Positions 4,900 to 64,000 of a DNA stretch of 64,000 nt are shown here, one piece after another; the first letter of the stretch is position 1, and every line of letters starts with the position of its first letter. The notes beneath the pieces were generated by a model. It did not search any database and was not told the DNA's origin. It worked only from the letters and a program-made list of their open reading frames with translations. The stretch is from the NCBI GenBank assembly GCA_963712115.1, contig CAVQGX010000007.1, positions 14,978-78,977 of the forward strand. Reading direction: 5' to 3'. A program made the position numbers and the translations under genes. This stretch comes from an uncultured delta proteobacterium. Lineage in GTDB: Bacteria; Desulfobacterota; Syntrophobacteria; BM002.

Positions 4900-5219
4900 T
4901 TTTTTTTCCTTGCAGGAGATTCACCCTCGCCAGTCACCAGGCGTGACTGAATATCCCGAGAAGCGGCGAGGATTTCGCCGAAAATCTTCTTCACTGCACC
5001 CCAGGCCAGGGGACCTTGGTTCTGGCTTGCCAGCCTCCGAAATATTGCTTGTTCCCTGTTTAAGTCCATGGCATCCCTGCCCGCCTTGTTTTTGAGCGCA
5101 GCAATCTCCTCAACCAAGAGCATGCGTTGGTTAAGCAACCGGAGAATTTGATTGTCCAAATCATCTATGTCCTGTCGCAATTGCTGTAGATCAGACCTAT
5201 CTTTCTTGATCTCATTCAT
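4896..5219 (-). CDS. monofunctional chorismate mutase (AroQ type)
   Basis: L..LRQDIDDLD.QIL.LLN.R...K...D..RE pattern; ATGA overlap with upstream gene. Confidence 0.88.
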   Translation of the reverse strand: MNEIKKDRSDLQQLRQDIDDLDNQILRLLNQRMLLVEEIAALKNKAGRDAMDLNREQAIFRRLASQNQGPLAWGAVKKIFGEILAASRDIQSRLVTGEGESPARKKN

Positions 5220-7035: not shown

Positions 7036-7168
7036 GTGCAACTCCTTTTGCTAGTAAGGGTAAACGTGCCAATAAGGTGCGTTGAAAATCCATGAGCCTA
7101 TTAATTTAATAAAAAGGTAATCCTCCACATTTAAGGTATACATTCAAAAAACGGACCATTTCTCCCCC

Positions 7169-16954: not shown

Positions 16955-18682
16955 GTGAATCTCCCTACTCTGGATTGGATAATCATTCTAGCCTACCTTG
17001 CTGCTAGTCTGATAATCGGCTTTTACTTCTCCAAGAGAGCCCTGCGGAGCGTGGACGACTACTTCGTCTCAGGCCGTGTCCTCCCGTGGTGGCTGGCCGG
17101 CATGTCCATGATTGCCTCCGCCTTCGCCATCGACACTCCTTTAGGCATTACCGGCCTGGTGGCCAAGGATGGTATCCCGGGTGTGTGGTATGCCTGGTCC
17201 TTTGTTCTAGGGGGAGCTGGCGCCCTGGGGGCCTTCATCTTTGCCTCTTTGCTGAGACGTTCTGAAATCATTACTACGGCTGAACTTATAGAGCTCCGCT
17301 ATGATGGCCCCTCTGCCGCTTTTCTGAGAGGTTTCAAAGGTGTCTACTTCGGTATATTTGCCAATGCTGTCACTTTGGGCTGGATCATTAAGGCAGTCTG
17401 GACAATTAGTGGGGTGGTAGCCCCCACAATTGATCGCCATCTTCTCTTGGGTGTCATACTTTCGGTCACCCTTACCTATACAGCAGCATCAGGGCTTTGG
17501 GGCATCGCTGCGACAGATCTCATTCAGTTTGTGATCGGCTCCGCAGGTTCCATTACCCTGGCAGTGCTTGCCTGGAATCACATCGGTGGAATGGGAAATA
17601 TCATTGACGGCTTCGTCAGTAGATATGGAGCTGGATCAGCTGCAGAGAGACTTAGCTTTTTCCCAACTGTAGGCACGCCTTTTTTCGTAACATTCCTGGT
17701 CTTCATAACCCTGAAATGGTGGGGCAATCCGCCCCCGGCAATCACTCAAAGAATTATTTCTGCGAAAAACGAAAAGCACGCCTCCTTTTCAACCATGTTT
17801 TTTGCAGTGGTTGCCTTTGGCTTCAATTACTGGCCCATGATCTTGGTGGCAATGGTTTCACTTATTGTCTATCCAGATTTAGAGGTTCCCGAGGCAGGCT
17901 ATGCCATGTTGATCTTGAAGCTCCTCCCCTCTGGGCTCCTAGGACTCATGCTAGCCTCTCTAATGGCAGCCTTCATGTCTACCGTAGATACCCACATAAA
18001 CTTTGGCGCTGCCTACATGGTCAATGACCTCTATCGCCGTTTTATTATGAAAAAGGCCTCAGAAAAACATTACGTCCGTGCTTCTCAGGTTAGCACAGTG
18101 CTTATGCTGCTACTTGCAGTGGTGATTGCCTATAATCTCGATTCGGTAAGTGATGCCTGGTATTACATATCTATGCTGACAGCGGGTTACGGTATTGTCA
18201 TAGTCGTTCGCTGGTTTTGGTGGCGGGTAAACGCTTGGGCAGAGATTGCAGCACTGGCGAGTTCAGGAGTCGGCAGCACTCTCCTATCGCCGAAATTTGC
18301 CAAAGCCGTGGGTTACTGGGACCATATTCCCCATTTGGACTGGCAGTACAGGTTTATGATTGTGGTGGCTTTCTGTACCGTTTCCTGGGTGGTAGTCTGC
18401 TTTTTGACCAAACCCACAGCAGAAGAGCATTTGAAAAAATTCTGCGCTAAGGTGAAACCTTTTCCTACCCTTTGGGGGCCTATCTATAAGAAAAATCCCG
18501 AGCTGGATTGGAATCCACATTTCACCAGATCATGCCTAAACTGGGTACTCGGTGCTGCCACCGTCTACTGTTTTTGTTTTGGCACAGGCCACCTTTTGTT
18601 CTTGAACTTCACCTATGGCTTCGTGCTCCTTGCATTAGCCGCTGTTCTAGCAATAATTATTCTGATAATTTGGAAAAGTTAG
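16955..18682 (+). CDS. sodium:solute symporter family protein
   Basis: Many TM helices; DYFVSGR.LPWW.AG.SM.A, GLWG...TDL.QF, AAFMSTVDTH.N.GA motifs. Confidence 0.92.
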   Translation: MNLPTLDWIIILAYLAASLIIGFYFSKRALRSVDDYFVSGRVLPWWLAGMSMIASAFAIDTPLGITGLVAKDGIPGVWYAWSFVLGGAGALGAFIFASLLRRSEIITTAELIELRYDGPSAAFLRGFKGVYFGIFANAVTLGWIIKAVWTISGVVAPTIDRHLLLGVILSVTLTYTAASGLWGIAATDLIQFVIGSAGSITLAVLAWNHIGGMGNIIDGFVSRYGAGSAAERLSFFPTVGTPFFVTFLVFITLKWWGNPPPAITQRIISAKNEKHASFSTMFFAVVAFGFNYWPMILVAMVSLIVYPDLEVPEAGYAMLILKLLPSGLLGLMLASLMAAFMSTVDTHINFGAAYMVNDLYRRFIMKKASEKHYVRASQVSTVLMLLLAVVIAYNLDSVSDAWYYISMLTAGYGIVIVVRWFWWRVNAWAEIAALASSGVGSTLLSPKFAKAVGYWDHIPHLDWQYRFMIVVAFCTVSWVVVCFLTKPTAEEHLKKFCAKVKPFPTLWGPIYKKNPELDWNPHFTRSCLNWVLGAATVYCFCFGTGHLLFLNFTYGFVLLALAAVLAIIILIIWKS

Positions 18683-18852
18683 CTACTGAAAGCTGAACGC
18701 TCATGGCGCGAGTCCAAAAAAACGTTGTTTTCGGATGAGCACTAGCTAGTTAGTGAAGGTGAACCTGCTCTTTTGCAGGTCATTCTCAGGAGTCCCGCTT
18801 AAGCGGCATGAGGAAGAATGTCGCAGTTGGCGGAAAAGTAGGCAATATCTCT

Positions 18853-19182
18853 TTATTTGTCGCCGCGGACGAAATACACGTAGATATTCACTGCCGCAAT
18901 GGCAATAAACCCACCACAGAAAATCAGCAGTTTTTCGGCATTAAAATCCAAAGCATTAGTCCCCTCTACCGTCAGCTGAAAAAGAAGAAGAAAAGCTGGG
19001 GCAGATAGAAGGGTAACCAGTGCCTTTTCCATCCCCCGGATTATGAAAACAATACTGCAGACCACCATAAAACCTATGAAATAGGGATTCTTTATCAGGG
19101 TCAGCATGTCAATCGAGGCAAGGATATCATTGAGCCTGCTGAAATCCAGGTCTCTTATGGCGGATATAATGTCTGACAACAT
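18853..19182 (-). CDS. small membrane protein, hypothetical
   Basis: Three hydrophobic segments; AAGGAG RBS. Confidence 0.7.
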   Translation of the reverse strand: MLSDIISAIRDLDFSRLNDILASIDMLTLIKNPYFIGFMVVCSIVFIIRGMEKALVTLLSAPAFLLLFQLTVEGTNALDFNAEKLLIFCGGFIAIAAVNIYVYFVRGDK

Positions 19183-19258
19183 GGTTGACAAACTCCTTGC
19201 TTTTTATTCTATAAGCCAAGCTAGCATAATAACTTGATTTATTATACAGTATTTATTT

Positions 19259-19274
19259 AGCAACTCCTATGCCA
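19259..19274 (-). promoter_or_regulatory. sigma54 (-24/-12) promoter
   Basis: Minus strand TGGCATAGGAGTTGCT: GG-N10-GC. Confidence 0.65.
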
Positions 19275-19395
19275 TAAGTTGCACCTCCAACCTGTCAAAA
19301 AGATTTTCTCCTCCTTCTTCGCCTCAAGACTCAGATCTGATATTTTACCATACTCCTGCTGCGCCCTCGGACACGACCATTCTCCCTGGCCTAGC

Positions 19396-19571
19396 CCGGA
19401 TGTTTCATGAATCACTTGCTGCGACCGCGGATATGAACGTCCTTCCGGGCGTCCTCAGGTGTCGTACCCTGCGACGTACCGTTCAGGTACGCCTCGGGTT
19501 CAACACCCTGCGGTTGCCCGGTGGCACGCCCATCTTCGTGGTCTCGCGACAGCAATTCATGAAACATCCGG
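19396..19571 (+). mobile_element. MITE-like element, family A, copy 1
   Basis: Perfect 17-bp TIR CCGGATGTTTCATGAAT...ATTCATGAAACATCCGG; non-coding; homologous to 26621 and 58801. Confidence 0.85.
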
Positions 19572-26325: not shown

Positions 26326-26574
26326 TTATGCAGCCTGGAGAGCATTCTCCATGTGGCTAAAGATATCCTTAACACTTTTGATTTTTTCTGCTTCCTCATC
26401 TGGAATTTCAAGGTTGAACTCTTCTTCCAGTGCCATGATCAACTCAACCACGTCGAGAGAGTCAGCACCTAAGTCATCCACCACGCTGGCCTCCGGGGTC
26501 ACATCTCCTCGATCAATTCCCAGTTGATTGGCAATAATCTCTACGATTTTCTCTTTCATTGCACCCATATCCAT
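26326..26574 (-). CDS. acpP: acyl carrier protein
   Basis: [31 protein letters not shown]. Confidence 0.97.
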
Positions 26575-51442: not shown

Positions 51443-52450
51443 CTATCTTCGTTCCACAGCAGTGTCAATCAGGACCTCTTTTAGTCTAGAGGCTGCAACC
51501 GTAGCCGTACCAACCTCGCCAACCACGATCCCAGCAGCCAGATTTGCTAGTACGGCGGCCTGACTGGGAGTCAGACCGGCTGCTAAAGCCAAAGTGAAGG
51601 TTGCTATAACAGTGTCACCTGCTCCAGATACGTCAAAGACCTTTCTGGCCACCGTGGGGATTTGAGTTGTCTGCCCGTTGCCCTCAAATAGCGTCATCCC
51701 CTTATCTCCCTGGGTGATAAGGACCATCTGACAGCCGAGTTCTTCGAGCAGACGGGCTCCAGTTCGCCTGAGGCTCTGGTCGTCTTCTATTTGAATTCCG
51801 GACATTTGCTGAGCTTCATAATTGTTGGGAGTGATAAGAGTAACATCTTTGTATAACGCCAAGTTCCGCACTGTGGGATCCACTGCTAAGATAAACTGAT
51901 TATCTTGGCTTAGAGAGCGGATGCCGTCCATAAGGCTCCGAGTCACAACACCCTTACCATAGTCGGCAACCACAATCGCATCGCTCTCATTTATCTCCTC
52001 TTTGAGGGTGGCGAGAATCCTGCCGATGCTCTTCTCATCCACAGGCTTCCGCTCCTCGCGATCAACCCTTACAACTTGCTGAGAGTGGGCCACCACTCGC
52101 GTTTTCATAGTGGTGGGTCTGCTATTCTCAACCACTAGTCCGTCAGTGATATTATTAAGCTTGCCCACAATACGCGTCAGCTTTTTCCCCATCGAGTCAT
52201 TACCTACAACACCGCAAAGTAAAGCTTGACCTCCTAGAGCAAGGATGTTGTTTACAACGTTACCTGCCCCCCCTAGCATATGAGACTGTCTCTCTACTTC
52301 TACAACCGGCACAGGTGCCTCGGGTGAAATTCTATCAACGCGGCCCCAAAGGAACTCGTCCATAATCACATCTCCCACTACCGTTATCCGGCAAGATGTG
52401 AACCTGTCTATACCATTGGAGAGAGCCTTGGAATCATAAGCGGGTGACAT
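51443..52450 (-). CDS. rfaE1: D-glycero-beta-D-manno-heptose-7-phosphate kinase
   Basis: RISPEAPVPVV, GGAGNV, TT.KTR, DYGKG, TPN..EA, VFDVSGAGDTV motifs. Confidence 0.94.
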   Translation of the reverse strand: MSPAYDSKALSNGIDRFTSCRITVVGDVIMDEFLWGRVDRISPEAPVPVVEVERQSHMLGGAGNVVNNILALGGQALLCGVVGNDSMGKKLTRIVGKLNNITDGLVVENSRPTTMKTRVVAHSQQVVRVDREERKPVDEKSIGRILATLKEEINESDAIVVADYGKGVVTRSLMDGIRSLSQDNQFILAVDPTVRNLALYKDVTLITPNNYEAQQMSGIQIEDDQSLRRTGARLLEELGCQMVLITQGDKGMTLFEGNGQTTQIPTVARKVFDVSGAGDTVIATFTLALAAGLTPSQAAVLANLAAGIVVGEVGTATVAASRLKEVLIDTAVERR

Positions 52451-52711: not shown

Positions 52712-52834
52712 AAACCAGCCCGGGTGGGTGGGAGCTTAAACCTCCTCTGGGGATCTCGCACAGAGACGCGTTCCATGGACCTGTAAGTGCTTGGTCATTT
52801 ACAAACTAACGTGCTTCAATTACACTTTGGCCTT

Positions 52835-54007
52835 ATGCGACGGACCTTGTTTAGATATTTTTTGGTTGAGGAGGCCATTCCATTCTTCGTCAGCCTATTG
52901 GTTCTGACCCTTGTTTTATTTCTGGGCAAGACCATGCGCTACACCAAGTTGCTTTTTATTACTGGGTCCGGTCTGGCTGAATTCGGCAAACTCCTGCTTT
53001 ATTTGATTCCGTACTTGTTGGCCTTCACTATTCCTATGGCCACCCTCATGGCCACTCTTCTCGCTTTCGCCAGATTGGCGCATGACAATGAACTCACCGC
53101 CATGAAGGCTGCTGGCATCAGTTTCTATCAGACAATTCCTCCAGTGGCCTTGCTGACGGGGCTTGCTTGTTTGGTCACCCTGGCTCTCTCCAATTTTGTT
53201 CTTCCACATGCCAACAGCGCCTTCAAGCGCGCCGTCCTTGAAATGGCGCGGTCCAGAGGCCAGTTGATTCTCAAAGAGCGGATCTTTAATGATCAATTCG
53301 CAGGCCTGGTTTTTTTCATTAACAGCATCTCTCCTGATGGCAATCATTTACGAAAGGTATTTATTTCAGACAGTCGATCACCTGAAACTAATAGCTCGAT
53401 TATTGCCGAAGAAGGTTTTGTAATCCACTCGCCCAGCGGCAACCGAATGACCCTGAGGCTCCTTCGGGGGCGGATCTTTCGGGTGGCAGCTGAGAGGCAG
53501 AGCCTGCAAACCATCCGCTTCCAAAATTATGACTTTAACCTTGATTTGGACTCTTTTGCTTTAGGTGATAAGGAATTTCGCAAGGCGGAACGGCACCTTG
53601 GCTTTACTGAATTAAGACAGGCACTGGCTGCAGCTATAGTCGGTTCAAAGGAACACAACAGGCTATCCTATGAATTCCACAGACGCTTATCCCTCCCCTT
53701 CGCTTGTATTGTTTTAGGGTTTCTTGCTGCGCCTTTGAGCGTTCAATCCAGAACCGGATCCCGACTCTCCGGAGTGGTTCTTGGTATTCTTCTTTTCTTG
53801 CTCTACTATGTTTTCGTCTCAGCCGCCAAGGCCCTGGGGGAAGGAGGATCATATCCACCTGCCATCGGCCTATGGTTGCCAAATGTCATTTTTTCTACCC
53901 TTGCAGTCGTTTTGTGGATCAAAACCGCAAGGGAGTCCCCATTCAAGCCAATTGTCGTTGTTCAGAGAATTGTGGGGCTGGCTACTTCTCGGATCAAATT
54001 AGGTTGA
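52835..54007 (+). CDS. lptF: LPS export ABC transporter permease LptF (no adjacent lptG)
   Basis: TL.RY...E, TIPMA.L...L..F.RL..DNELTAMKAAG, EFHRR.SLPFAC, WLPN motifs. Confidence 0.85.
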   Translation: MRRTLFRYFLVEEAIPFFVSLLVLTLVLFLGKTMRYTKLLFITGSGLAEFGKLLLYLIPYLLAFTIPMATLMATLLAFARLAHDNELTAMKAAGISFYQTIPPVALLTGLACLVTLALSNFVLPHANSAFKRAVLEMARSRGQLILKERIFNDQFAGLVFFINSISPDGNHLRKVFISDSRSPETNSSIIAEEGFVIHSPSGNRMTLRLLRGRIFRVAAERQSLQTIRFQNYDFNLDLDSFALGDKEFRKAERHLGFTELRQALAAAIVGSKEHNRLSYEFHRRLSLPFACIVLGFLAAPLSVQSRTGSRLSGVVLGILLFLLYYVFVSAAKALGEGGSYPPAIGLWLPNVIFSTLAVVLWIKTARESPFKPIVVVQRIVGLATSRIKLG

Positions 54008-54169: not shown

Positions 54170-55225
54170 ATGATTCTAGAACCTGATAAAATACACTCGA
54201 TTTTAGTTTTAATGATGGATAGACACCTGGGAAATTTCTTAGTTTCTTTGTCATCTATCGTCGCATTCCAAAAATACTTTCAAAACAAAAAATGCTATTT
54301 CGCCTTTGACAGTAATTACAGAGAGGTTGTTGAAAGCGTCCATGGTTTAAACAACATAATCTCTTTTCCCAGAAGAGAAATATACAAAAGTGGGCTGATA
54401 AAACGAATATTACTATATCTGAGGTTTATCAATAGTCTTAGAAGTACAGATTGCGATGTCGCAATTGACTTACAGGGAGGAAACGCTTCTTCTATTGCAA
54501 GCTTCTTGTCAGGTGCATCACGCCGCCTGAGTAATTCTAGTGCCAGAAGACCTTATATTTACAATATAAAGATCGACCTCCCAGTAGGTGAGCACAAGGT
54601 TCGCAGTTATACGAAGATTGCTGAGGCCTTAGGGGCCACCATAGACGAACCACACTATCGACTATACCCTTCGAACCGCAGAACAGAGTCACTAAACAAG
54701 ATACTCGAACTTCACAGAATAGCCTCCCATAGACCGATTATCTCTGTACACGCCGGCGCCGGCAATATTCACAAGCAATGGACCACAGATGGATTTGTGG
54801 CGATTGCGGACTGGCTTGCCTCAAAAGACTTCCAGGTCATCTTGGTTGGATCTGATCGAGATTTAGATAAGATTGAGGCAATAATGACCAGATTGAGTCA
54901 TAAAGCTTACAATCTCGGGGGGGCCTTGTCTCTCGGCGAGTTGATGGCCCTTTTTCACATGAGTTCACTTTTCTTGGGAAATGACAGTGGTCCCATGCAC
55001 CTGGCTGCAGCCATGGGAACGCCCCTGGTGGGTTTGTTCGGTCCAGTTGATGAGAGGAGATGGGGGCCCCTCTCTGCCAACTCTATCGTTTTGAGAGGTG
55101 AGGAGGCTTGTGAAGACTGTAGGGAGAAGCGCAAAGATTGTCATGACTTCCCCTGCATAACCACGCTGAAGCCAGACAAGGTGAAAAAAGCGATCAGCGA
55201 GCTGCTAGCAGCTGGACAGGACTAA
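54170..55225 (+). CDS. glycosyltransferase family 9 (heptosyltransferase-like)
   Basis: D.AIDLQG, H.GA...K.W, SL.EL.AL, GNDSGPMHLAAA.GTP.VGLFGP motifs. Confidence 0.9.
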   Translation: MILEPDKIHSILVLMMDRHLGNFLVSLSSIVAFQKYFQNKKCYFAFDSNYREVVESVHGLNNIISFPRREIYKSGLIKRILLYLRFINSLRSTDCDVAIDLQGGNASSIASFLSGASRRLSNSSARRPYIYNIKIDLPVGEHKVRSYTKIAEALGATIDEPHYRLYPSNRRTESLNKILELHRIASHRPIISVHAGAGNIHKQWTTDGFVAIADWLASKDFQVILVGSDRDLDKIEAIMTRLSHKAYNLGGALSLGELMALFHMSSLFLGNDSGPMHLAAAMGTPLVGLFGPVDERRWGPLSANSIVLRGEEACEDCREKRKDCHDFPCITTLKPDKVKKAISELLAAGQD

Positions 55226-55281: not shown

Positions 55282-56241
55282 TTAACGAAATCCTCCCTTG
55301 CGGTATAATCGCCAAGAAAGTATGCACACCGCCAGCAGGGGATGGCGTTTTAGCCGTGGAGTCCACTCAACCCTGACCCCAGAGTGCCGCTCTATTTTCC
55401 ACTGGATGTAGTCCACCCCTCCCTCGAAAGTAAAAACCGCTTTGGCGAGGCGCAAAATTGAAAGCACTTTTCCCTGGAGCCTCCTCAAAGTCCAAGCCAA
55501 ATGGCTGCGGTACCGAACCTGGTTTGGAATGTGGGCGTGATAAAGGAAGCCATCTGGTTCAGCAAAAGTCTCCACCTTAAAGGGAACGGAAAACATGGCA
55601 GCGCGGGTAACTTGTGCATAGTATTCTGGAGCAGCGTCAACCAGATAAACGAGTTTATCAGGTTTTTCTGACCTGAGTTCCGCCCTATAGCTGAGCAAAA
55701 GTCCATGGTGCCACAAATCTCGAGCTGTAAACCTCTCCTCTACACCTGGCATTACACGGGTAATAAAAGTAATAACAGCCTGAGCCAGCGCCATTTGCAC
55801 CTGTTTTTCCACCTGGTTGTTACGTGCGTACAGCAGCCCGGCAGGTTGGGCAAATCTTCCCCACAGGTAGGAGTGGAACCATTGCTTCGAGGTGCCCCTC
55901 TGTAAGTCTTTGAGGGAGAGAACAGCGTACTTTGTGCGCACCACGCGATCTTGCACGGGCAATTCCAGATAGAACACATTGGGTGGTAGTAGCTTGTTGG
56001 CCATGGCCTGTAAACGATTTGGCAAAGCGGCGCGGTAGCTATCTACTATGACGTACAGGTCAACCAGTCCGTCGGTATCATCACCCGTGCGAAAACATGA
56101 ACCATAGAAAAGGATTGCTTGGGTAGCCTCGCCATAGCGGTTCAGAAGCACCTCCGCCAGGGCACGCACTCCATCCGGAGCCTCCCGAGAGGATTCTTGT
56201 CGAATCAAGGTGATTAGGTTCGATGGCACTGTCACGGTCAC
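55282..56241 (-). CDS. Tam41/Mmp37-like cytidylyltransferase (CpgC-like)
   Basis: FYGSC, DLYVIVD, PPNVFY, KYAVLS, YLWGRFAQP, SYRAELR motifs. Confidence 0.72.
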   Translation of the reverse strand: MTVTVPSNLITLIRQESSREAPDGVRALAEVLLNRYGEATQAILFYGSCFRTGDDTDGLVDLYVIVDSYRAALPNRLQAMANKLLPPNVFYLELPVQDRVVRTKYAVLSLKDLQRGTSKQWFHSYLWGRFAQPAGLLYARNNQVEKQVQMALAQAVITFITRVMPGVEERFTARDLWHHGLLLSYRAELRSEKPDKLVYLVDAAPEYYAQVTRAAMFSVPFKVETFAEPDGFLYHAHIPNQVRYRSHLAWTLRRLQGKVLSILRLAKAVFTFEGGVDYIQWKIERHSGVRVEWTPRLKRHPLLAVCILSWRLYRKGGFR

Positions 56242-57251
56242 AATCTCAGAAATGAGGCCTTACCGCCATTTTGGACAACAACTGGTCCGAGGTGAGCTTT
56301 CGCCTCGAAAAGCTCACCGTCGAGGGTGAATCCACTATTTAGGCTTAGCCGGACTCGCTCTACATTATGGCTAACGTAGCCATTTTTTGCGGTCCCGTAA
56401 CGGTTCGTCCGACCACGTATCAGAGCCGGCAGTGCCCGCAACAGGTATCGAGGCTGCGAATCGACCGCAGTGTAATGCAAAGGCCCGTCTTCTTTGCCCC
56501 AATAAGGACGCAGACCAAGAAATAGCCGCTCCAGTCCAGTAATCATTAGCAGAAACCAGTCCCTCTGTTCGGGCGGATTGTCATCCAACCCCACGGTGAT
56601 AGGCACGGGAGCAACATGGGTAGTGCCCCTTACTGCAACGGCCAGGAGAAACAAAGCAATAGTCAACCCTGGAGCCCACTCTCCCCTAAAACCAGGCCGG
56701 TTCAGCTTGTTGTTGCAAAACTGGATTCCCTGATAAATACTGGCCGTCCCCAAAAACATCCCGTAAACGGGTTCCACATTGGGAGCCGCCTGGACACGCA
56801 AAACCGGGCGTTGTAGATGAACCACCTCGCCCTTCCCGTCACAGGCCCATGTCAATAGCTTTCGTAACCCTTGAGCCCGAGATCCTTTCAGACCCACATC
56901 CCCAGCGGTCATACTTGTTGTGCCGGCTCGCAAAACTGCCAGAAGCGGCAGTCTTTCAAAAGGACTTTGGTGGTATAGAACCGTTAGCGCCGCCTGAATA
57001 GTGCCGTCGCCACCGTTTATTGCGACCACATTCACCTCTTGGCGAGCAAAATCGGCCAAGGCTGATGCCACATCGGCTGGAGTCTGGACATCACGATCCG
57101 ATACTTGCGGGTAGGCCGCCAAAACCTCCCGGACGGTCCCTAGCCCTTTCCGGTTGGCGCCGCTGAGAGGGTTATTTAATACCCCTACGCGCAGAGGTCT
57201 GGCAGGTGCCGAAATGCGTTGTGAATGGTCGCTAAGCTTCCTCTCCGCCAC
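56238..57251 (-). CDS. diacylglycerol/sphingosine kinase family protein (ceramide kinase CpgB-like)
   Basis: NPLSG, INGGDGT, AGTTSMTA.D.G, FTLDGE motifs. Confidence 0.82.
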   Translation of the reverse strand: MAERKLSDHSQRISAPARPLRVGVLNNPLSGANRKGLGTVREVLAAYPQVSDRDVQTPADVASALADFARQEVNVVAINGGDGTIQAALTVLYHQSPFERLPLLAVLRAGTTSMTAGDVGLKGSRAQGLRKLLTWACDGKGEVVHLQRPVLRVQAAPNVEPVYGMFLGTASIYQGIQFCNNKLNRPGFRGEWAPGLTIALFLLAVAVRGTTHVAPVPITVGLDDNPPEQRDWFLLMITGLERLFLGLRPYWGKEDGPLHYTAVDSQPRYLLRALPALIRGRTNRYGTAKNGYVSHNVERVRLSLNSGFTLDGELFEAKAHLGPVVVQNGGKASFLRL

Positions 57252-57506
57252 CCTTAGCCCTTCCTAGTACAAAAGAAAAGTGAAAATCCAACCACATAGG
57301 AGTTCTGCCTTGACTTCACCCCGCTCAAATAAAACTTGTCCCAAGTGGATTAGTGACTGTAATGAGGACCCCATTATCCTTGGGAACCTTAAGCATACGT
57401 GGCAAAAAATGAACTGGTATTGTATATTAGACCCACGAATTCTGTAAAGCCCAGTGACTATAGATGCAACTTCACCTATGATCTTTAACTGGTCAATGGC
57501 GGATTT

Positions 57507-57724
57507 AACCACAGAGAACACGGGGAAAATAAATCCGAAATCCTAATATCGAAATCCTAAACAAATTCAAATTCTCAAAATCCAAATGACCAAAACTTTA
57601 AAATCATATATTGATTCCATGTTGTTTTGAACATTGGAGAATTTGAAATTCGGATTTGTTTCGTGCTTAGGATTTAGGATTTCGAATTTAGTGGCAACTA
57701 CGCTACTCCTAGGTCTCTGTAGTT
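57507..57724. repeat. composite fold-back element (AAATTCGAAATCCTAAAT family, copy 2)
   Basis: aaccacagag outer arm; aaatccgaaatcctaatatcgaaatcctaaacaaat ... atttgtttcgtgcttaggatttaggatttcgaattt. Confidence 0.85.
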
Positions 57725-57751
57725 TAATTCCTAGCCTTATGACCGCTCACT

Positions 57752-58711
57752 GTGGTCGAGCCCCAAAACATGAACGATACCTTCACACTAGCCCATCTTT
57801 CCGACTTCCATCTTTCTTCTCTGAATAAGGTCAAGTTACGAGATCTACTGAACAAGCGCATATTCGGTTATGTCAAATGGCAGCTTCGCAGACATAGTGA
57901 GCACAGTCCAGAGGTCCTCGAGGCCTTGCTCCGCGATTTACAGATTACCCGACCTGACCACATCGTGGTTACCGGCGACTTGACACATTTGGGTTTGCCT
58001 GCTGAATTCCGTGAGGCCAGGAATATTCTGCATTCAATAGGTTCACCCCCGGAGGTCACAGTAATCCCTGGTAACCACGACGCCTATGTGAGAACTGACT
58101 GGAATAGCACATTCGGCCTTTGGGCAGACTATATGGTCTCTGATGGCCCTTCCCCCCGTGGTGAAGCGGGGACTGACTCCCAAAATACCTTTCCCAGCCA
58201 ACGAATACGTGGGTTTGTAGCACTTGTTGGCGTATCCACCGCCAGACCTAGTGGACTCTTTCTTGCTGTGGGTAGTGTTGGTCAGTTACAACTGCGAGAA
58301 CTGGAAAGGATTTTAGCAGAGACAGGACAACAGCGGCTTTTTCGGGTCCTACTGATCCACCATCCCCCGCTGCCCGGCATCGTAAGTTGGCGCAAACGGT
58401 TAACCGATGGCGAAGCCTTACGTTTGATTCTGGCACGGCAAGGTGTGGAACTCGTCCTGCACGGCCACTCCCACCGCGGTTCGCTGGGTCATATCGACAC
58501 TGTCATGGGTGAGGCTCCAACATTCGGCGTTACTTCTGCCTCAGCGCCAGGTCGCACAACCAAGCGGAGGGCTCGCTACCATATCCACCGCCTCAAAAAA
58601 AATCCTCAAGGCTGGGAAATTGTCGTCTCAGTGAGGTGTTATTCCCCACAATCAGAGAGTTTTGTAGAAGAAACTGAAACCCGTCTCGTCCTTCCCCGTG
58701 CGATCGCCTGA
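57752..58711 (+). CDS. calcineurin-like metallophosphoesterase
   Basis: HLSDFH, TGDL, PGNHD, IHHPP, LHGHSH motifs. Confidence 0.92.
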   Translation: MVEPQNMNDTFTLAHLSDFHLSSLNKVKLRDLLNKRIFGYVKWQLRRHSEHSPEVLEALLRDLQITRPDHIVVTGDLTHLGLPAEFREARNILHSIGSPPEVTVIPGNHDAYVRTDWNSTFGLWADYMVSDGPSPRGEAGTDSQNTFPSQRIRGFVALVGVSTARPSGLFLAVGSVGQLQLRELERILAETGQQRLFRVLLIHHPPLPGIVSWRKRLTDGEALRLILARQGVELVLHGHSHRGSLGHIDTVMGEAPTFGVTSASAPGRTTKRRARYHIHRLKKNPQGWEIVVSVRCYSPQSESFVEETETRLVLPRAIA

Positions 58712-58800
58712 TTAATCTTAATGTATTTTATGAGTTTTGTAGATCTAAATTGTAGTATTGTTAGCTACTTCAGGAATGATTGATTGTGGGAGCTGCTTTA

Positions 58801-58984
58801 AACCGGATGTTTCATGAATTGATGTCGCGAGGCCTTGGAGATGGGCGTGCCACTGGGCAACCGTACCGCGGGATTGGTTCCGAGGCGTACCTGAACGGTA
58901 CGTCGCAGGAGCCGACACCCGAGGACGCCCAGAAGAACGGCCACATCCTTGGCCACAGCAAGCGATTCATGAAACATCCGGGTT
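58801..58984 (-). mobile_element. MITE-like element, family A, copy 3 (inverted)
   Basis: CCGGATGTTTCATGAAT...ATTCATGAAACATCCGG flanked by TTAA; core is the reverse complement of copies 1 and 2. Confidence 0.85.
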
Positions 58985-58987
58985 AAG

Positions 58988-60058
58988 CTAGGGAGCCTGG
59001 CGAAGCTGCCAGAGAGCTATCGTCAAAATTAGAGCTACAGGGGTTAAGGTGGTGAGCGGTGCAGGGAACTCTAACAATAGCCCTAGATAGCCGATTATCT
59101 GATTTGCCAGATAAAAACCAATTCCCACCGAGGCTCCCAGGGTTATCCTCAATCCCACGGTCATGCCCCGTGGTGGCCCAAATACGAAGGGTAGTGAGAG
59201 TAGAACCATTGCACCCGTTGTTAAAGGCATGACCAGTTTCTGCCACAGAGCCAGACTGTAGTTGTCCGCATTCTGTCCCCTCTCCCGAAGAGCCTTGATA
59301 TACAAGTATAAGTCTGACGGTGCTAGGCTCTCTGGAGGTAGTTCCAAGACACTAACCTGGTCCTTACTAAAAAATGAGTCAATCTCTAGGCTTGGTAAGT
59401 ACTGGGTGCTGATCCCCTGCTCCTCGATGACCTTTTTTTGAATGTCCTTGAGTGTCCATCGTCCATCTTTATGGATATCTGCTTCACGCGCATGAATAAA
59501 GGATCGTAAAAAACCCTCTTCGTCACGTTCGTAAATATCCAAATCCGCCGCAATTCCACCCGACAGGGTTAAGCCAACTCGGATGAAGGAGTTGCCATGC
59601 CGCGCCCAAAATCCCCGTTTCGTCAACATAATGCCACTTGAACCCGAGAGTGATAAAGAGCGGCGCGCATGGGCATATTGCTCAAGTTGCGGTACTATAT
59701 ATTGTTCGGTGGCGGCACTGGCTAGCATAAGCAAGCCTGCAGAGGCAAGCACTGAAAAGCAAATTCTCCGGACTGACAATCCAGCAGCTCGCATGGCAAT
59801 AAGTTCGCCTCTTTCGGCCAACATCCCGAGGCCAATGATCCCACCCAGCAGAGCACTGATGGGCAACATATCAATGATTCTCTTGGGGAGTGTCAGACCA
59901 ACGAAGATGAAAGCGTCAACTGCCTGGAAATTCCCTTTGCCCACATCGTCGAGTTGGGTCACTAAATCCAGAAAACTAAACAAAGAGACCAGAACGAGGA
60001 CCACCAAGAAAAAGCCCCGGAAAAAACTACTGCCTAGGTAACGATCAAGTGTTCTCAT
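58988..60058 (-). CDS. lptG: LptG-family permease (second copy, in the lipid cluster)
   Basis: TLDRYL, P...ALLG...L...GELIAMRAAGLS, LW.KL..P motifs. Confidence 0.85.
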   Translation of the reverse strand: MRTLDRYLGSSFFRGFFLVVLVLVSLFSFLDLVTQLDDVGKGNFQAVDAFIFVGLTLPKRIIDMLPISALLGGIIGLGMLAERGELIAMRAAGLSVRRICFSVLASAGLLMLASAATEQYIVPQLEQYAHARRSLSLSGSSGIMLTKRGFWARHGNSFIRVGLTLSGGIAADLDIYERDEEGFLRSFIHAREADIHKDGRWTLKDIQKKVIEEQGISTQYLPSLEIDSFFSKDQVSVLELPPESLAPSDLYLYIKALRERGQNADNYSLALWQKLVMPLTTGAMVLLSLPFVFGPPRGMTVGLRITLGASVGIGFYLANQIIGYLGLLLEFPAPLTTLTPVALILTIALWQLRQAP

Positions 60059-60171
60059 TTATCATTTATCATTTCGCATTTGTCATTTTTCAATTCATAT
60101 ATCGAGCTTCCAGTCTTATCCCTCAATGTGCAATGAGAAATGAGCAATGGGAGATGAAAAATGGCAAATGG
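60053..60171. repeat. fold-back heptamer array (NNCATTT / AAATGNN) between lptF and lptG
   Basis: ctcattt-atcattt-atcattt-cgcattt-gtcattt ... caatgag-aaatgag-caatggg-agatgaa-aaatggc-aaatgg. Confidence 0.85.
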
Positions 60172-60205
60172 GCTATGTTCTGTGATCTCTCCCCAATGGT
60201 GGCCT

Positions 60206-61315
60206 TCACGGGAAAAACCTTCTTGAGGACAAGCGTTGTCTAATCTGACCCCATTTAAACATCAGCTTTGGCTGAATTGAAAGGGCCAGCACTACTATTG
60301 CAAGCAATACCACAACCCACCAAATCCCCACCACTGGCCCCACAACCCCCTGTTCAACCCAGTCCTTAGCCATGGCGCTGGTGTTGTAATAGACGGCCAG
60401 GATTATCACCGCCGCCACCAATCTGGCGTACTTGCCCTTACGAGGAGCTGTGCGACTCAGGGGAATACCAAGCAGAGCTAGTAGCAAGGTGGAGATGGGC
60501 GTAGAGAGTCTCCATTGATACTCTGCGATATCTTCGAGGTCGCTAGAACGGGCCAACTTCAATGTTGAGGCAGCTTTGCGTTTATACTCCATTGGTTTTG
60601 TCTTTCCATAATCAATAGACATTGTGGACTGCTGGAACTTCATGAAGTGGCCTTCCTCGCCAGTGCGAGATAATTCATAAATGTACCCGTCCTGGAATAT
60701 TAGCAGTGGCTTACCATTACTGTCATCACTGTATTGTTGGACTTTTTTAGCATATATGACCTGCACTTTATCCCCTTGATCGCTTTGGATGAAAACTCCC
60801 TCTGCTCGCTTTTTTTCTTGATTTATCTCGTCTGCGTAGATGACACGGTTCATCCCCGGGATCTTATAAAAGTTACCTTCTTTCCATTTACCAATATCTA
60901 GTGCGGTTTTCGCCATTGCTGTCAGTACATAACCCTGCTGGTAAGCCCAGGGACGGACATAAAGGGACAAACATGCAACCAAAAGAGCAATAGGTACTGA
61001 CAGGTAGATAACGGCTTTGAAAATGCGACCGATGCCCACACCACATGCAAAGAGAGCCGTCATTTCGGAATCGGCGTACAACCTTCCAAGAACAACTACA
61101 ACAGAGAGGTACAGGGTGGTGGGAAGAAGCACCTCCATAGCGATGGCTATTTTTAGTAGGACTAGGTATAAAACGATCTTTCCCGCAATCAGGCCAGCTA
61201 CGGCCTCAGCCAGGTATTGTGCTGCTCTGTAGCTTGCGAAGATCACCACCAAGAAGGCACAAATAGCAATTAGAGGTTTGCTTATTTCTCGTATTAGATA
61301 GCGGTCGATGATCAA
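60206..61315 (-). CDS. lptF: LptF-family permease (second copy, in the lipid cluster)
   Basis: IIDRYL.RE, LGRLY.DSEMTAL..CG, AEYQWR, PLSR..PR.G motifs. Confidence 0.85.
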   Translation of the reverse strand: MIIDRYLIREISKPLIAICAFLVVIFASYRAAQYLAEAVAGLIAGKIVLYLVLLKIAIAMEVLLPTTLYLSVVVVLGRLYADSEMTALFACGVGIGRIFKAVIYLSVPIALLVACLSLYVRPWAYQQGYVLTAMAKTALDIGKWKEGNFYKIPGMNRVIYADEINQEKKRAEGVFIQSDQGDKVQVIYAKKVQQYSDDSNGKPLLIFQDGYIYELSRTGEEGHFMKFQQSTMSIDYGKTKPMEYKRKAASTLKLARSSDLEDIAEYQWRLSTPISTLLLALLGIPLSRTAPRKGKYARLVAAVIILAVYYNTSAMAKDWVEQGVVGPVVGIWWVVVLLAIVVLALSIQPKLMFKWGQIRQRLSSRRFFP

Positions 61316-61357
61316 AGCTCTTACCCCTATTCGCAGTGGGTGGTCAGGGGGAGTCTA

Positions 61358-61558
61358 AACATAGAGAACACGAATCCACATAGCACCACTAAATTCGAAA
61401 TCCTAAATCCTAAGCACGAAACAAATCCCAGTGTCAAATTCTCCAATTTTTAAAACAAAAGCGAATCAACATGTGACTTAAGAGTTTGGTAATTTGAAAT
61501 TGTTTCGGATCTCGAGTTAGATTTCGGATCACGCTATCCTCGAGGTCTCACGTCGGTT
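61358..61558. repeat. composite fold-back element (AAATTCGAAATCCTAAAT family, copy 3)
   Basis: 61386-61428 is the exact 43-bp reverse complement of 57652-57694. Confidence 0.85.
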
Positions 61559-61580
61559 TCATTCTAAGCGGTGCGACCGG

Positions 61581-62390
61581 TTACTTGTGCTGTAGGTCTC
61601 TGGCCACAATTGATTCAACTAGCTTCCAGTCGCTTAAGCTATCAACATCCACTGCTGCTTCCGGAAAGGGCAGGAGAACGGCACCGGCTCTTAGCCCAAT
61701 CCGCTGCGATATTCGTTCCAACCCTTCTTCAAGAGATGGCCGCTTCAGCAAATAGAGCAATAAGTTGAGCCAACCAAAACCAGCGATAACCCGCAATGTT
61801 TTTTTGCGCTGGCTTTCAACCTTACGCCAAAAAAGAGCTGCAATCCGCGCCTCAGGTGTCAGGAAACCGAAGAGGTTACATGAGCAGTAAGAAGCGTCTC
61901 CCAGTGGAATAGCAGTTCTCTTCGTCTCCGGATATTTAGCCGTAACCAATTCATGCAGAGCCAGTCCTACTACTACGTCCTTATTGCTTTGGCGAGCCCC
62001 GGAGCAGAAATAATCCACTATCTCGGCAGTGAGCAGCGCATGGTCTGCTGTGGTCACCAAAACTGGGGTGCTATCTGGCAGAGACTGCATAGCGTGGTAA
62101 GTGCTGGAGCTTGGAGTTGCCTGACTTTCCAGCCATCTAACCTTACCCGAACCGATACGAACACAAAGTTCTTTGTCCTGCTCTACAGCAGACTTGTCAG
62201 GCCCGCAAAGTACTATTCCTTCTATCTCCCGAGCTGCCTCTAGAGCATCAAGTACGCGGAGTACCATTGCCCTTCCCCCCACCGGAGTCAGAGACTTGGA
62301 GCTAACGCCGGCGGCCCTGGCCACCGGGTCCCCAGAACTGCGGTCTCCGGCTAGGACCACCGCAGTAAAAGGTGTTATCAGCCTGCTCAT
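61581..62390 (-). CDS. MobA-like nucleotidyltransferase
   Basis: AVVLAG.R...DP.A...G...K.L..VGG, TTADHALLT, CNLF, EAAVDVD...D motifs. Confidence 0.85.
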   Translation of the reverse strand: MSRLITPFTAVVLAGDRSSGDPVARAAGVSSKSLTPVGGRAMVLRVLDALEAAREIEGIVLCGPDKSAVEQDKELCVRIGSGKVRWLESQATPSSSTYHAMQSLPDSTPVLVTTADHALLTAEIVDYFCSGARQSNKDVVVGLALHELVTAKYPETKRTAIPLGDASYCSCNLFGFLTPEARIAALFWRKVESQRKKTLRVIAGFGWLNLLLYLLKRPSLEEGLERISQRIGLRAGAVLLPFPEAAVDVDSLSDWKLVESIVARDLQHK

Positions 62391-62535
62391 AAAGTTGTTT
62401 ACTCCTGCCGGGGGACTACTGGCAACATAGTAAACTGGCTAACATCCCACAAGTTTATTTAACATCCAAAACCCGGTCCTTAGGGCTAGGTCAGTCCCGC
62501 CCGTGGCGGGATTGCCGCGACGATTACGAGCTGTC

Positions 62536-62712
62536 TTGGAGCATTGGAGTATCAGAAATTCCAAATTCCAGGGTTTTAGGTGTCAGGTTTCGGGTTTCAG
62601 GTGTCAGGAGATGAAACACAAAGGCTGAAACCTGAACACTGAAACCTGAAACCTCAGGTAATGTGATTTGGGATTTAATAGATTCCATCATTCCAACATT
62701 CCATTATTCCAA
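62536..62712. repeat. triply nested fold-back element (8-mer > 7-mer > 7-mer)
   Basis: ttggagca-ttggagta [aaattcc-aaattcc [ggtgtca-ggtttcg-ggtttca-ggtgtca ... ctgaaac-ctgaaca-ctgaaac-ctgaaac] gatttgg-gattt] ttccatca-ttccaaca-ttccatta-ttcca. Confidence 0.85.
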
Positions 62713-62746
62713 TTGCGGAAGTAAATGAAGCTAGGTTCTCTAACGG

Positions 62747-63904
62747 TTAAACACCTGCTAAGTCTTTAGCGAAGATGCGGTAGCGTTTGTACACAACCCC
62801 TCCCATAGACTCGAGGATGTTACGCATTCCCGCATTATCTTCGAGAATCCAGGACAGTTCAACTTCCTTGGCACCGTATTTGACTCCGAGCCGACGCCCT
62901 CTCTCTACTACCATGACGGCAAGGGCCGCGCCCAGGAGACTGTTGTGGTGACGCTTTCGTACACCCATTAGAGGCACACGGGCTGTCTTGGGACGACTCA
63001 CCTTCAGCCGCCAAAGTAGCTTGAGCCAGCCGAAAGGGAGGAGCCTTCCGTTTAGATCTTTGATAATCTCATTAACATTTGGTACCCCTACGATCATGGC
63101 ATCCGGTGAACCGTCAACTTCAGCAATTTGGACGTACTCGTCATGCACTAGATGTTTCAAATTCTGCCCCAGATGCTTGAATTCCGCCTTGGTAAAAGGT
63201 ACAAAGCCCCAATTTTCCGACCAGGCATCCTCAAAGATGTCCTGCAAAATTTCAAGCTCTTCACTAAAACGTTCTCTCCTCAACGAGCGGATGCTTACCC
63301 TTCTCGCTGCTCTCTTGATCACAGCCCTCATTGCTCTTGTCAGTTCGAAATCAACGTCAATACGGTAGGCAAGTAGGTCTTTCTCTTTTCTGTAACCGTT
63401 CTCTTCTACCCTAGCACCGTAGTATGGGCGGGCATGCCCCATCATCACCATGGGAGGACTGTCAAAGCCTTCCACCAGCAACCCACATTCTTGGTTTATG
63501 GACAGATTAAACGGGCCAAGAATTCGGCGCATGCCCTGGTTGCTCAACCATTTCTCAGCGGTATCCATAAGAGCCTGGAAGGTCTCCGGATCGTCCTCAG
63601 CTTCCAGGAGCCCGAAAAAACCTGTGGAGTCTTCGTAACGTTGGAGATGGAGCTGGTCCACCTGAGCACTGATGCGTCCCACTGGTCTCTCACCGCGATA
63701 GGCCAACCAAAACCTGCATTTCGCATGCTCGAAGAAGGGATTGCGCTTAGATAAGTGCTCACTACGCTCCAACAATAGTGGCGGAACCCAGGCAGGGTCG
63801 TCTCCATAGATCGACCAGGGCAGTCGAATAAACTTGCGCAAGCCCTGTCGACCTTCCACTGGTACGATCCGTAGAGGGCCGCTATGCAACTGCCTTTGCA
63901 CCAT
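62747..63904 (-). CDS. GNAT-fold acyltransferase, YghO / bacterial ceramide synthase family
   Basis: WVPPLL.ER, GRISAQ.D, GFFG, GPFNLSINQECGLLV.GF, AW..NWGFVP, LMGVRK, ELSWILEDN motifs. Confidence 0.82.
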   Translation of the reverse strand: MVQRQLHSGPLRIVPVEGRQGLRKFIRLPWSIYGDDPAWVPPLLLERSEHLSKRNPFFEHAKCRFWLAYRGERPVGRISAQVDQLHLQRYEDSTGFFGLLEAEDDPETFQALMDTAEKWLSNQGMRRILGPFNLSINQECGLLVEGFDSPPMVMMGHARPYYGARVEENGYRKEKDLLAYRIDVDFELTRAMRAVIKRAARRVSIRSLRRERFSEELEILQDIFEDAWSENWGFVPFTKAEFKHLGQNLKHLVHDEYVQIAEVDGSPDAMIVGVPNVNEIIKDLNGRLLPFGWLKLLWRLKVSRPKTARVPLMGVRKRHHNSLLGAALAVMVVERGRRLGVKYGAKEVELSWILEDNAGMRNILESMGGVVYKRYRIFAKDLAGV

Positions 63905-64000
63905 AATCTCCTAAAGCAACGACCAAATAGTGTATTGGTCCTACCAGTATGTTTTGCCGGTGAGAGCCCCAAACTTGGACACTCGAGCAATATAACTGAT

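Follow-up and report, generated by a model that had tools for sequence, protein, structure and literature searches.

What would an uncultured delta proteobacterium, presumably an anaerobe, make with a set of genes that resembles the sphingolipid head-group genes of Caulobacter, and how would the product pass to an outer membrane for which core genes of lipopolysaccharide (LPS) are encoded right next door? This question is raised by seven genes at positions 55282-63904 of a 64-kb stretch of contig CAVQGX010000007.1 (GenBank assembly GCA_963712115.1), the whole of which we call the window. A sequence-only reading of this DNA had proposed a cluster for the synthesis and export of an anionic sphingolipid, and protein family, gene order and a tree of the Lpt permeases all agree with that proposal. 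We consider it likely that the cluster represents that half of a Caulobacter-type pathway for anionic sphingolipids which serves head-group formation and export, carried by a Desulfobacterota-like lineage of metagenome-assembled genomes (MAGs). The anaerobic lifestyle of the host would follow only from the taxonomy of the relatives of its GNAT protein, the nearest labelled ones being MAGs assigned to Deltaproteobacteria (83% identity) and to Syntrophobacteria, Desulfobacteraceae and Syntrophobacterales (75-78%).

Seven genes and their relatives

The system of reference is the Caulobacter locus CC_1152-CC_1168. As described by Olea-Ozuna et al. 2024 (PMC11324152), it comprises a PF00483 nucleotidyltransferase (CC_1152, CpgD), a protein characterized in S1 Text as MobA/CobY/CofC-like (CC_1153), the ceramide synthase bCerS (CC_1154), LptG2 (CC_1155), LptF2 (CC_1156), a HIT protein (CC_1157), a calcineurin-type phosphoesterase (CC_1158), the CDP-alcohol transferase CpgA (CC_1159), the ceramide kinase CpgB (CC_1160), the Tam41-domain protein CpgC (CC_1161), Spt, AcpR, CerR and AasR (CC_1162-1165), a flippase (CC_1166) and LptC2 (CC_1168). 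According to the same source, the formation of ceramide phosphoglycerate (CPG) requires CC_1160 and CC_1161, and CC_1159, CC_1158, CC_1153 and CC_1152 are needed for, or contribute to, its diphosphoglycerate form CPG2; lipid profiles of Caulobacter mutants are also given by Zik et al. 2022 (PMC9393093). CpgD makes CDP-glycerate (Dhakephalkar et al. 2025, PMC12275187).

The window cluster consists of seven intact open reading frames (ORFs), which an ORF check found to have the same ends as in the sequence-only reading. From the right-hand border leftwards, the first encodes a YghO/bCerS-type GNAT of 385 amino acids (aa; 62747-63904, minus strand), the predicted ceramide synthase and putative counterpart of CC_1154. 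It is followed on the same strand by a MobA/CofC-like nucleotidyltransferase (61581-62390, 269 aa; PF12804, 60.2 bits), which would correspond to CC_1153 and not to CpgD, and by an LptF (60206-61315, 369 aa; TIGR04407, 339 bits with a cut-off of 230) and an LptG (58988-60058, 356 aa; TIGR04408, 352 bits with a cut-off of 240) of the type found in sphingolipid loci, i.e., LptF2-like and LptG2-like. Next comes a calcineurin-type metallophosphoesterase on the plus strand (57752-58711, 319 aa; PF00149, 58.8 bits), the probable counterpart of CC_1158. The last two genes, again on the minus strand, encode a lipid kinase of the diacylglycerol kinase (DAGK)/YegS/sphingosine-kinase fold (56238-57251, 337 aa; PF00781, 40.7 bits), the putative counterpart of CpgB (CC_1160), and a Tam41/Mmp37-like nucleotidyltransferase (55282-56241, 319 aa; PF09139, 30.3 bits with a cut-off of 24), that of CpgC (CC_1161), whose start overlaps the kinase stop by 4 nt. 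The Pfam and NCBIfam scores, all above their cut-offs, bear out the families that the sequence-only reading had given for the six partners of the GNAT. All seven proteins are full length relative to their homologues (91-100% coverage in tblastn against related loci) and have kept the invariant residues.

Likened by descriptions, published tables and synteny, the window therefore has putative counterparts of CC_1153, CC_1154, CC_1155, CC_1156, CC_1158, CC_1160 and CC_1161 in nearly the same order as Caulobacter, with protein families as described and, in both, Lpt paralogues embedded among the lipid genes. In contrast to Caulobacter, it is without cpgA (CC_1159), cpgD (CC_1152), the HIT protein (CC_1157), the flippase (CC_1166) and LptC2 (CC_1168); no genes for Spt, AcpR, CerR or AasR adjoin the cluster on its visible side, LPS core genes border on it, and the host is of a Desulfobacterota-like lineage.

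Conservation of the gene set was assessed in related loci, i.e., the best 80 of 599 confirmed matches (600 stretches) from a profile scan of genome contigs with an alignment of 51 GNAT family members as query. These loci, with GNAT identities of 47-66%, form a similarity-ranked sample rather than a census and exclude the source genome and its 83% MAG relative; the GNAT family itself has 7487 representatives at E≤1e-3 and 1334 at E≤1e-30. By tblastn, the MobA-like gene lies immediately downstream of the GNAT on the same strand in 61/80 loci, and LptF (48/80), LptG (42/80), the phosphoesterase, the kinase and the Tam41-like gene (39/80 each) are found within 10 kb of it. All six partners are present in 12/80 loci (one from Nitrospirota, five from Thermodesulfobacteriota or "delta", four from Gamma- and two from Alphaproteobacteria), including that of the isolate Desulfoprunum benzoelyticum DSM 28570, a cultured anaerobe with the entire head-group module. 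Because the same gene set recurs around the GNAT across several phyla, the clustering of the seven genes is far beyond chance.

The related loci also show what else belongs to this neighborhood. In four of the closest ones, Pfam revealed an AMP-binding ligase, an epimerase-family reductase, a PP-binding acyl carrier protein (ACP) and a class I/II aminotransferase as extra neighbors, together with a CDP-alcohol transferase between phosphoesterase and kinase, a PF00483 nucleotidyltransferase beside LptF and an MsbA-like exporter. Seeded tblastn counts across the 80 loci were 38 for the ACP, 37 for the reductase, 36 for the ligase, 31 for CpgA-like, 29 for CpgD-like and 25 for MsbA-like genes. 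A serine palmitoyltransferase (Spt)-type gene, counted at ≥45% identity with two further matches near 31% dropped, lies within 10 kb in 40/80 loci; when the count is restricted to the 48 loci with flanks of 8 kb or more to either side, it is 31. The aminotransferases of loci L003 and L006 score 629 and 602 bits on the serine palmitoyltransferase model NF047599 (cut-off 500), and the ligase of a related locus scores 783 bits on NF006624 (cut-off 600).

The GNAT itself, for which no Pfam family scored above its cut-off, is 49% identical to E. coli K-12 YghO over 366 residues (E=8e-140), in agreement with the YghO-type assignment of the sequence-only reading. In E. coli APEC E19019 (RefSeq), where the locus is intact, yghO lies divergently from genes for a fatty acyl-AMP ligase, an NAD-dependent epimerase, an ACP and Spt, which are followed by a second lptG and lptF; for the E. 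coli yghO-spt locus, the Fig. 2B legend of a recent preprint names strain UTI89 (10.64898/2026.04.12.717747). Genes for the kinase and for the Tam41-like, MobA-like and phosphoesterase proteins, all present in the window, are lacking from the E. coli locus, the product of which presumably carries a different head group. In K-12, the locus is cut by an IS5 element that overlaps one end of yghO (L083:11044-12216), which is annotated there as a "putative DNA-binding transcriptional regulator". The GNAT DNA of another related locus (L069) was compared with E. coli and gave no match.

A quick IQ-TREE phylogeny with SH-aLRT support values only was built from 87 rows, i.e., the window, 78 of the 80 loci (L045 and L070, with coverage below 90%, were omitted) and eight database proteins, with five distant family members on branches of 2.0-2.6 as the outgroup. 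The window GNAT joins its 83% and 75% relatives (support 99), and this trio falls inside an 11-row group with Geobacteraceae and Nitrospirota loci (support 91, with a threshold of 95). Seven of the eight loci in this group have Spt within 10 kb, the exception (L005) being a contig of 6.6 kb, which places the window among Spt-linked GNATs. The nearest GNAT relatives with readable context adjoin genes for acyl-ACP synthetase, reductase, ACP and Spt.

The published orthologue tables provide a further bridge to Caulobacter. Loci of Nitrosomonas and Nitrosospira show the order of Neut_1100-1106 of Nitrosomonas eutropha (GNAT, MobA-like, LptF, LptG, CpgA-like, kinase, Tam41-like), and an Azorhizophilus locus (L050) shows that of Avin_44240-44370 of Azotobacter vinelandii; the loci compared are from congeners or relatives of the published species, not from the same strains. 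Both gene runs are listed as orthologues of CC_1154, 1153, 1156, 1155, 1159, 1160 and 1161, with GNATs 41% (N. eutropha) and 47% (A. vinelandii) identical to CC_1154 (PMC11324152). The window shares this order apart from cpgA, its proteins are 27-58% identical to the Nitrosomonadaceae and Azorhizophilus counterparts, and Spt lies outside the cluster in Nitrosomonas as well, elsewhere in the genome; however, cpgA is present and the phosphoesterase absent in those runs, and the reverse is true of the window. Taken by sequence, the window GNAT is thus supported as a YghO/bCerS-type ceramide synthase.

Within the wider family, an alphaproteobacterial GNAT clade (L059, L071 and L073, also L017 and L048; support 100) has neither a sphingolipid partner nor Spt within 10 kb, and not every member of the family need therefore be a ceramide synthase.

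Predicted head-group enzymes and the gaps at cpgA and cpgD

If the Caulobacter scheme is carried over to the window, the YghO/bCerS-type GNAT would act with Spt, ACP, reductase and acyl-ACP synthetase encoded elsewhere to make ceramide, and the DAGK-fold kinase would turn this ceramide into ceramide-1-phosphate as CpgB does, a role transferred from Caulobacter by family, synteny and gene fusion. The profile of the kinase family matches, among other structures in the PDB, DAGK-domain proteins as well as YegS, DgkB and sphingosine kinase 1 (E values of 2e-11 to 6e-7), and in the family alignment G81-D82-G83 is invariant and T84 nearly so. The Tam41-like enzyme would then convert ceramide-1-phosphate to CPG, a step for which the genetics have been shown in Caulobacter, plausibly through a CTP-dependent cytidylyl intermediate as formed by Tam41 with phosphatidate. 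The kinase and Tam41-like genes of the window take the position of Neut_1105/1106. In the related loci, 34 of which contain the two genes, they are neighbors in 31, and they form a single ORF of 664-669 aa in three Nitrosomonadaceae (L016:15515-17509, L020:15513-17522 and L025:17453-19462), as expected for enzymes of consecutive steps.

The best solved relatives of the Tam41-like family profile are structures of mitochondrial Tam41 (6ig2 and 6ig4; E=1.2e-5 over ~140 residues), a CDP-diacylglycerol synthase, and the Pfam match lies above the gathering score. However, the similarity to the mitochondrial enzyme is low, and the bacterial proteins are encoded beside a lipid kinase or fused with one; their substrate is presumably ceramide-1-phosphate and not phosphatidate.

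The MobA/CofC-like enzyme may activate, and the phosphoesterase process, a nucleotide-activated head-group precursor. PDB matches to the profile of the former are TTHA0179 (6.7e-38), IspD (4e-8) and a 3-phospho-D-glycerate guanylyltransferase (7p97, 2.8e-5), besides transferases of the GlmU and KdsB type, and it matches a CpgD-like profile only at E=45. Its gene is the most constant neighbor of bCerS-type GNATs, even where kinase, Tam41-like and Lpt genes are not nearby, as in the Geobacteraceae loci L002 and L008. The phosphoesterase has kept all its metal-binding motifs (D18, H20, G75-D76, G107-N108-H109-D110, H203-H204, G238-H239 and H241) and has GpdQ (5.7e-12) and Rv0805 (3e-11) as its nearest solved relatives, which points to a phosphodiesterase of the GpdQ/Rv0805 type.

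The sequence-only reading had regarded this phosphoesterase as an extra that might set the window apart. This part of it did not hold up, as Caulobacter has CC_1158, which contributes to CPG2. The tables of five genomes published with that work (S2A-E, including N. eutropha) give no CC_1158 orthologue (PMC11324152). Among the 80 loci, we found homologues in 39 (15 in Gamma- and 12 in Alphaproteobacteria, the others in Desulfobulbia, "delta", Nitrospiria and further groups) and in none of the 11 betaproteobacterial loci, and the distribution of CC_1158-type phosphoesterases is wider than in the five published tables. The real difference from the Caulobacter set is the missing cpgA and cpgD-type gene.

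Neither a CpgA CDP-alcohol phosphotransferase nor a CpgD-type PF00483 nucleotidyltransferase was found in the window by tblastn with related-locus seeds at E≤1e-6. Both genes lie inside the cluster in the closest retrieved loci (L001, L003, L004, L006, L030 and L033), and the arrangement of the window equals that of L001 minus cpgA in the phosphoesterase/kinase interval and the cpgD-type gene in the MobA-like/LptF interval. The gaps at these syntenic places measure 500 bp (38% GC) and 265 bp, respectively. When a CpgA profile of 30 proteins was run against 2464 stop-to-stop fragments of the window, the best match was a weak one (E=0.064, 27 residues) at 57267-57542 on the minus strand, i.e., at the syntenic place of cpgA and in the orientation expected for it; the match stops immediately short of the catalytic motif. 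The fragment may be a relic of a deleted cpgA. It overlaps an orphan ORF of 85 aa (57264-57521), which was rejected as an ACP or a real gene for want of any family match; a promoter-like site (10/12 matches) lies inside this ORF (57448-57419, minus strand). No relic of cpgD was detected, the best match of a CpgD profile to the window fragments (E=2.5) lying elsewhere in the window, and weak tblastn matches to cpgD at 61252-61335 were rejected.

Of the 80 loci, 22 have a cpgA-like as well as a cpgD-like gene, 42 have neither and 16 have just one of the two. This co-occurrence agrees with the published proposal that CpgA receives its CDP-glycerate from CpgD. Since cpgA and the cpgD-type enzyme are missing at their syntenic places, we lean somewhat towards the mono-phosphoglycerate CPG rather than CPG2 as the end product, given that the pathway works at all.

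A full CPG2 pathway, for which cpgA and cpgD would have to lie in another part of the genome, is possible, though we are doubtful of it. There is precedent for such scattering: orthologues of CC_1153, 1159, 1157 and 1152 form a separate cluster in S. wittichii, and the CC_1152 orthologue of N. eutropha lies in another region (PMC11324152). Moreover, CC_1153 and CC_1158, which in Caulobacter belong to the CPG-to-CPG2 side of the pathway, both have a similar gene in the window. However, the six closest retrieved loci hold both genes inside the cluster exactly where the window has gaps, one of them with a possible relic, and it is not unusual for a locus to do without the pair, which is absent from more than half of the sample and from 5 of the 25 full-flank loci that carry both kinase and Tam41-like gene. 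Zymomonas mobilis, too, lacks CC_1159 and is read as CPG-only by the authors who tabulated it (PMC11324152). Like the window, it has orthologues of the kinase, the Tam41-like protein, LptF2/G2 and bCerS; in contrast to the window, its genes are scattered over ~10 regions and include no phosphoesterase, and it is an aerotolerant alphaproteobacterium.

As a tentative alternative to the Caulobacter scheme in full, we propose a pared-down pathway in which cpgA (leaving a relic) and cpgD were lost, and the MobA/CofC-like enzyme and the GpdQ-like phosphodiesterase would build or edit the first head group. The seven-gene module would in that case be old and shared by several phyla (Nitrospirota, Thermodesulfobacteriota and Pseudomonadota) rather than a proteobacterial speciality. 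If this were true, the product, made e.g. via a nucleotide-activated phosphoglycerate, would be a singly charged or otherwise undescribed ceramide phospholipid, and it would sit in the outer membrane of an organism that is strictly anaerobic and produces LPS as well.

The permease pair beside the LPS genes

For export, the LptF2/LptG2-type pair together with the LptB of the cell would extract the anionic lipid from the inner membrane, destined for the outer membrane. This step is transferred by phylogeny from Caulobacter, where it is based on genetics and pull-down. In a preprint by Uchendu, Isom and Klein (10.64898/2026.04.12.717747), lptF2, lptG2 and lptC2 are described as deletable only in the absence of Spt or CpgB, and LptF2 as co-purifying with LptG2, and both of them with LptB; the same source regards lptC2 as apparently confined to Caulobacter.

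LPS genes do stand next door, as the sequence-only reading had pointed out. Directly to the left of the cluster, we found rfaE domain I (51443-52450; TIGR02198, 372 bits with a cut-off of 345), a third, solitary LptF/G-family permease of 406 aa outside the conserved module (52787-54007, plus strand; TIGR04407, 244 bits with a cut-off of 230) and a glycosyltransferase family 9 (GT9) heptosyltransferase (54170-55225, by Pfam/NCBIfam), with a UDP-glucose dehydrogenase gene also to the left of the cluster near these LPS core genes. It could consequently be argued that the pair in the cluster is the ordinary LPS exporter, that the flanking enzymes modify LPS or phospholipids, and that the likeness to sphingolipid loci is one of protein family only. 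Both permeases pass the NCBI LptF/LptG equivalog cut-offs with high scores, LPS core genes lie less than 5 kb away, no second complete pair is visible in the window, and S. wittichii is reported to have no LptFG other than its sphingolipid-locus pair (10.64898/2026.04.12.717747).

We nevertheless consider this explanation very unlikely. The cluster-embedded pairs of Nitrosomonas communis, L003 and L006 pass the same equivalog cut-offs, and PGAP names the permeases of the E. coli spt locus LptF/LptG ("LPS export ABC transporter permease") though the canonical pair of this organism is encoded at another locus, so that these cut-offs do not discriminate between the two types. Phylogeny does: in a tree of 91 rows (seven references, with E. 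coli as the single canonical one, and 84 segments with at least 85% coverage), the window LptF falls into a 38-row clade (SH-aLRT 99) with the LptF of the E. coli spt locus, outside of which lie both the canonical E. coli LptF and the third paralogue of the window. The window LptG forms a 5-row clade (99) with Desulfobulbia and "delta" loci within a 36-row group (93) that holds the LptG of the E. coli spt locus, with the canonical LptG again outside. The window LptF is 35-55% identical to most cluster-embedded LptF proteins of non-alphaproteobacterial loci. In addition, the whole seven-gene order recurs beside Spt in other phyla. The preferred reading, i.e., that of a sphingolipid-locus pair, therefore stands. 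What the sequence-only reading had called a second LptF/LptG pair is indeed a pair of this type, but the "first" pair that the wording implies was not seen, as the window holds one pair and an orphan paralogue.

This orphan is 21% and 24% identical to the LptF and LptG of the cluster, and its long branch (1.53) is unreliably placed in the tree. No orthologue was found by tblastn in the 80 related loci. It sits between rfaE1 and the GT9 gene and may be an LPS-side LptF whose partner is not in the window.

Other transport genes turned up at the related loci. In a Desulfobulbaceae MAG (L006, 19666-21030, minus strand), genes for LptB (TIGR04406, 364 bits with a cut-off of 240) and LptC (TIGR04409, 101 bits with a cut-off of 38) directly adjoin the Spt/MsbA-like end of the sphingolipid locus; a locus labelled "uncultured delta proteobacterium" (L030) has LptB and LptC near 18667-19491 as tblastn matches only. 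An MsbA/HepA-like half-transporter lies beside Spt in 25/80 loci (e.g., L003:17396-19183), directly downstream of it in L003 and L006, and scores below the MsbA equivalog cut-off (252 bits vs 602). It is a candidate sphingolipid flippase in place of the CC_1166-type protein of Caulobacter.

Possible ceramide supply and meaning of the locus

Several points weigh against the sphingolipid reading. Orthology to the CC_115x genes, as inferred from sequence, is transitive, passing through published orthologue tables and synteny with Nitrosomonas and Azotobacter, and 8/80 GNAT loci are without any partner or Spt, though two of these are contigs below 8 kb. The Pfam Tam41 match spans only residues 86-203, and CpgB also phosphorylates diacylglycerol (S1 Text, PMC11324152), so that the substrate of the kinase is not fixed by its family. 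As set out above, cpgA and cpgD could lie elsewhere in the genome. Above all, Pfam and tblastn found none of the core genes for Spt, reductase, dedicated ACP and acyl-ACP synthetase in the window. The sequence-only reading had already noted the absence of Spt, ceramide reductase and CDP-alcohol transferase there, and Pfam on 56 ORFs as well as tblastn with related-locus seeds confirmed that the 64 kb hold no Spt-type aminotransferase, no reductase of the short-chain dehydrogenase or epimerase type and no CDP-alcohol transferase. A stand-alone ACP of 82 aa with a DSLD motif (26326-26574, minus strand), ~30 kb away and upstream of a TetR-family gene, was rejected as AcpR and is probably a housekeeping protein. 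Among the 20 loci with the arrangement of the window and at least 5 kb upstream, ligase and Spt lie divergently upstream of the GNAT in eight and not in the other 12.

From these points one might conclude that the cluster is a leftover without ceramide, i.e., that Spt was lost and that kinase and Tam41-like enzyme use diacylglycerol and phosphatidate as substrates, with a glycerolipid analogue as the product or none at all. The signs of gene loss, with cpgA and cpgD absent and a possible relic of the former, would be in line with this, as would the acceptance of diacylglycerol by CpgB and the substrate given for Tam41 in its Pfam description, which is phosphatidate. However, all seven genes are of full length and have their invariant residues intact. 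Eight of the 12 loci without upstream ligase and Spt are from Nitrosomonadaceae, and N. eutropha keeps its Spt in a distant region of the genome (PMC11324152), so that absence from one window means little. For these reasons, and because of the linkage described next, we give this explanation little credence.

Linkage between the GNAT and core genes was assessed through contig sizes common to the 120-row lists of relatives of the GNAT, of AasR (query from L001) and of Spt (query from L003). A JGI contig of 20,533 bp is reported for both a GNAT 95.6% identical to that of the window and an AasR-type ligase (NF006624, 821 bits with a cut-off of 600). Among the matches listed, the GNAT and AasR lists also share contig sizes of 13,367, 139,818, 7,009 and 1,950 bp. 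The GNATs of the 20,533-, 13,367- and 139,818-bp entries are 95.6%, 78% and 76% identical to that of the window, and the ligases of the same entries are 80-81% identical to one another and score 803-825 bits on NF006624, again with a cut-off of 600. The indirect nature of this linkage also counts against the sphingolipid reading, and the 1,950-bp match is due to chance, as such a contig cannot hold both genes, and the 7,009-bp match probably is as well, its ligase being 68% identical to the 20,533-bp one where the GNATs are 93% identical. The control lists (GNAT vs Spt and AasR vs Spt) share only sizes of 1,476-7,518 bp; for GNAT vs Spt there is no long shared contig size, with listed Spt matches that reached only down to 76% identity. 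Spt is present in 29 of the 34 loci that have an AasR-type ligase, and three of the five exceptions are contigs below 9 kb.

This indirect evidence indicates that, in a population whose GNAT is 96% identical to that of the window, no more than 20.5 kb separate the GNAT gene from one for an AasR-type ligase. Given that no ligase lies within the 64 kb on one side, the gene would be found beyond position 64000 if the gene order is shared. The genes for Spt, ACP, reductase and acyl-ACP synthetase are, we infer, encoded outside the window, probably just beyond this end.

The rest of the window adds little to this picture. The remaining 41 larger ORFs scanned with Pfam are housekeeping genes (shikimate, tryptophan and others). 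Promoter-like sites number 22 with 12.0 ± 3.5 expected and terminator-like ones 10 with 12.3 expected, and nothing among them is decisive. Inside the run of shikimate and tryptophan genes, a 3-dehydroquinate synthase II (PF01959) adjoins a DeoC/LacD-family aldolase (5216-7041, minus strand); these two types of enzymes together form an alternative, mainly archaeal entry to aromatic amino-acid synthesis.

The window cluster is a new example of a known system with reduced gene content, an annotation gain and not a discovery. The conserved cluster in alpha-, beta- and gammaproteobacteria and homologues of CC_1161 in delta-proteobacteria are already in print (PMC11324152). Spt-like genes have been reported from 38 phyla including Desulfobacterota in work on the Black Sea that links Spt-bearing Desulfobacterota to unusual ceramides (PMC11334938), and our literature search found no paper on a bCerS ceramide synthase in Deltaproteobacteria. 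In Caulobacter, anionic sphingolipids partly replace LPS and are a target of polymyxin (PMC12275187, PMC9393093), and the Lpt-like route of their export was shown only in 2026 (10.64898/2026.04.12.717747).

For the steps of the pathway that are still unsolved, the related loci provide leads in the fusion of kinase and Tam41-like protein, in cpgA and cpgD being usually present or absent together, and in the constancy of the CC_1153-like enzyme beside bCerS. The presence of the module in genomes of the Desulfobacterota and Nitrospirota type carries sphingolipid biology to anaerobic and nitrifying lineages, which matter to the biogeochemistry of sediment lipids.

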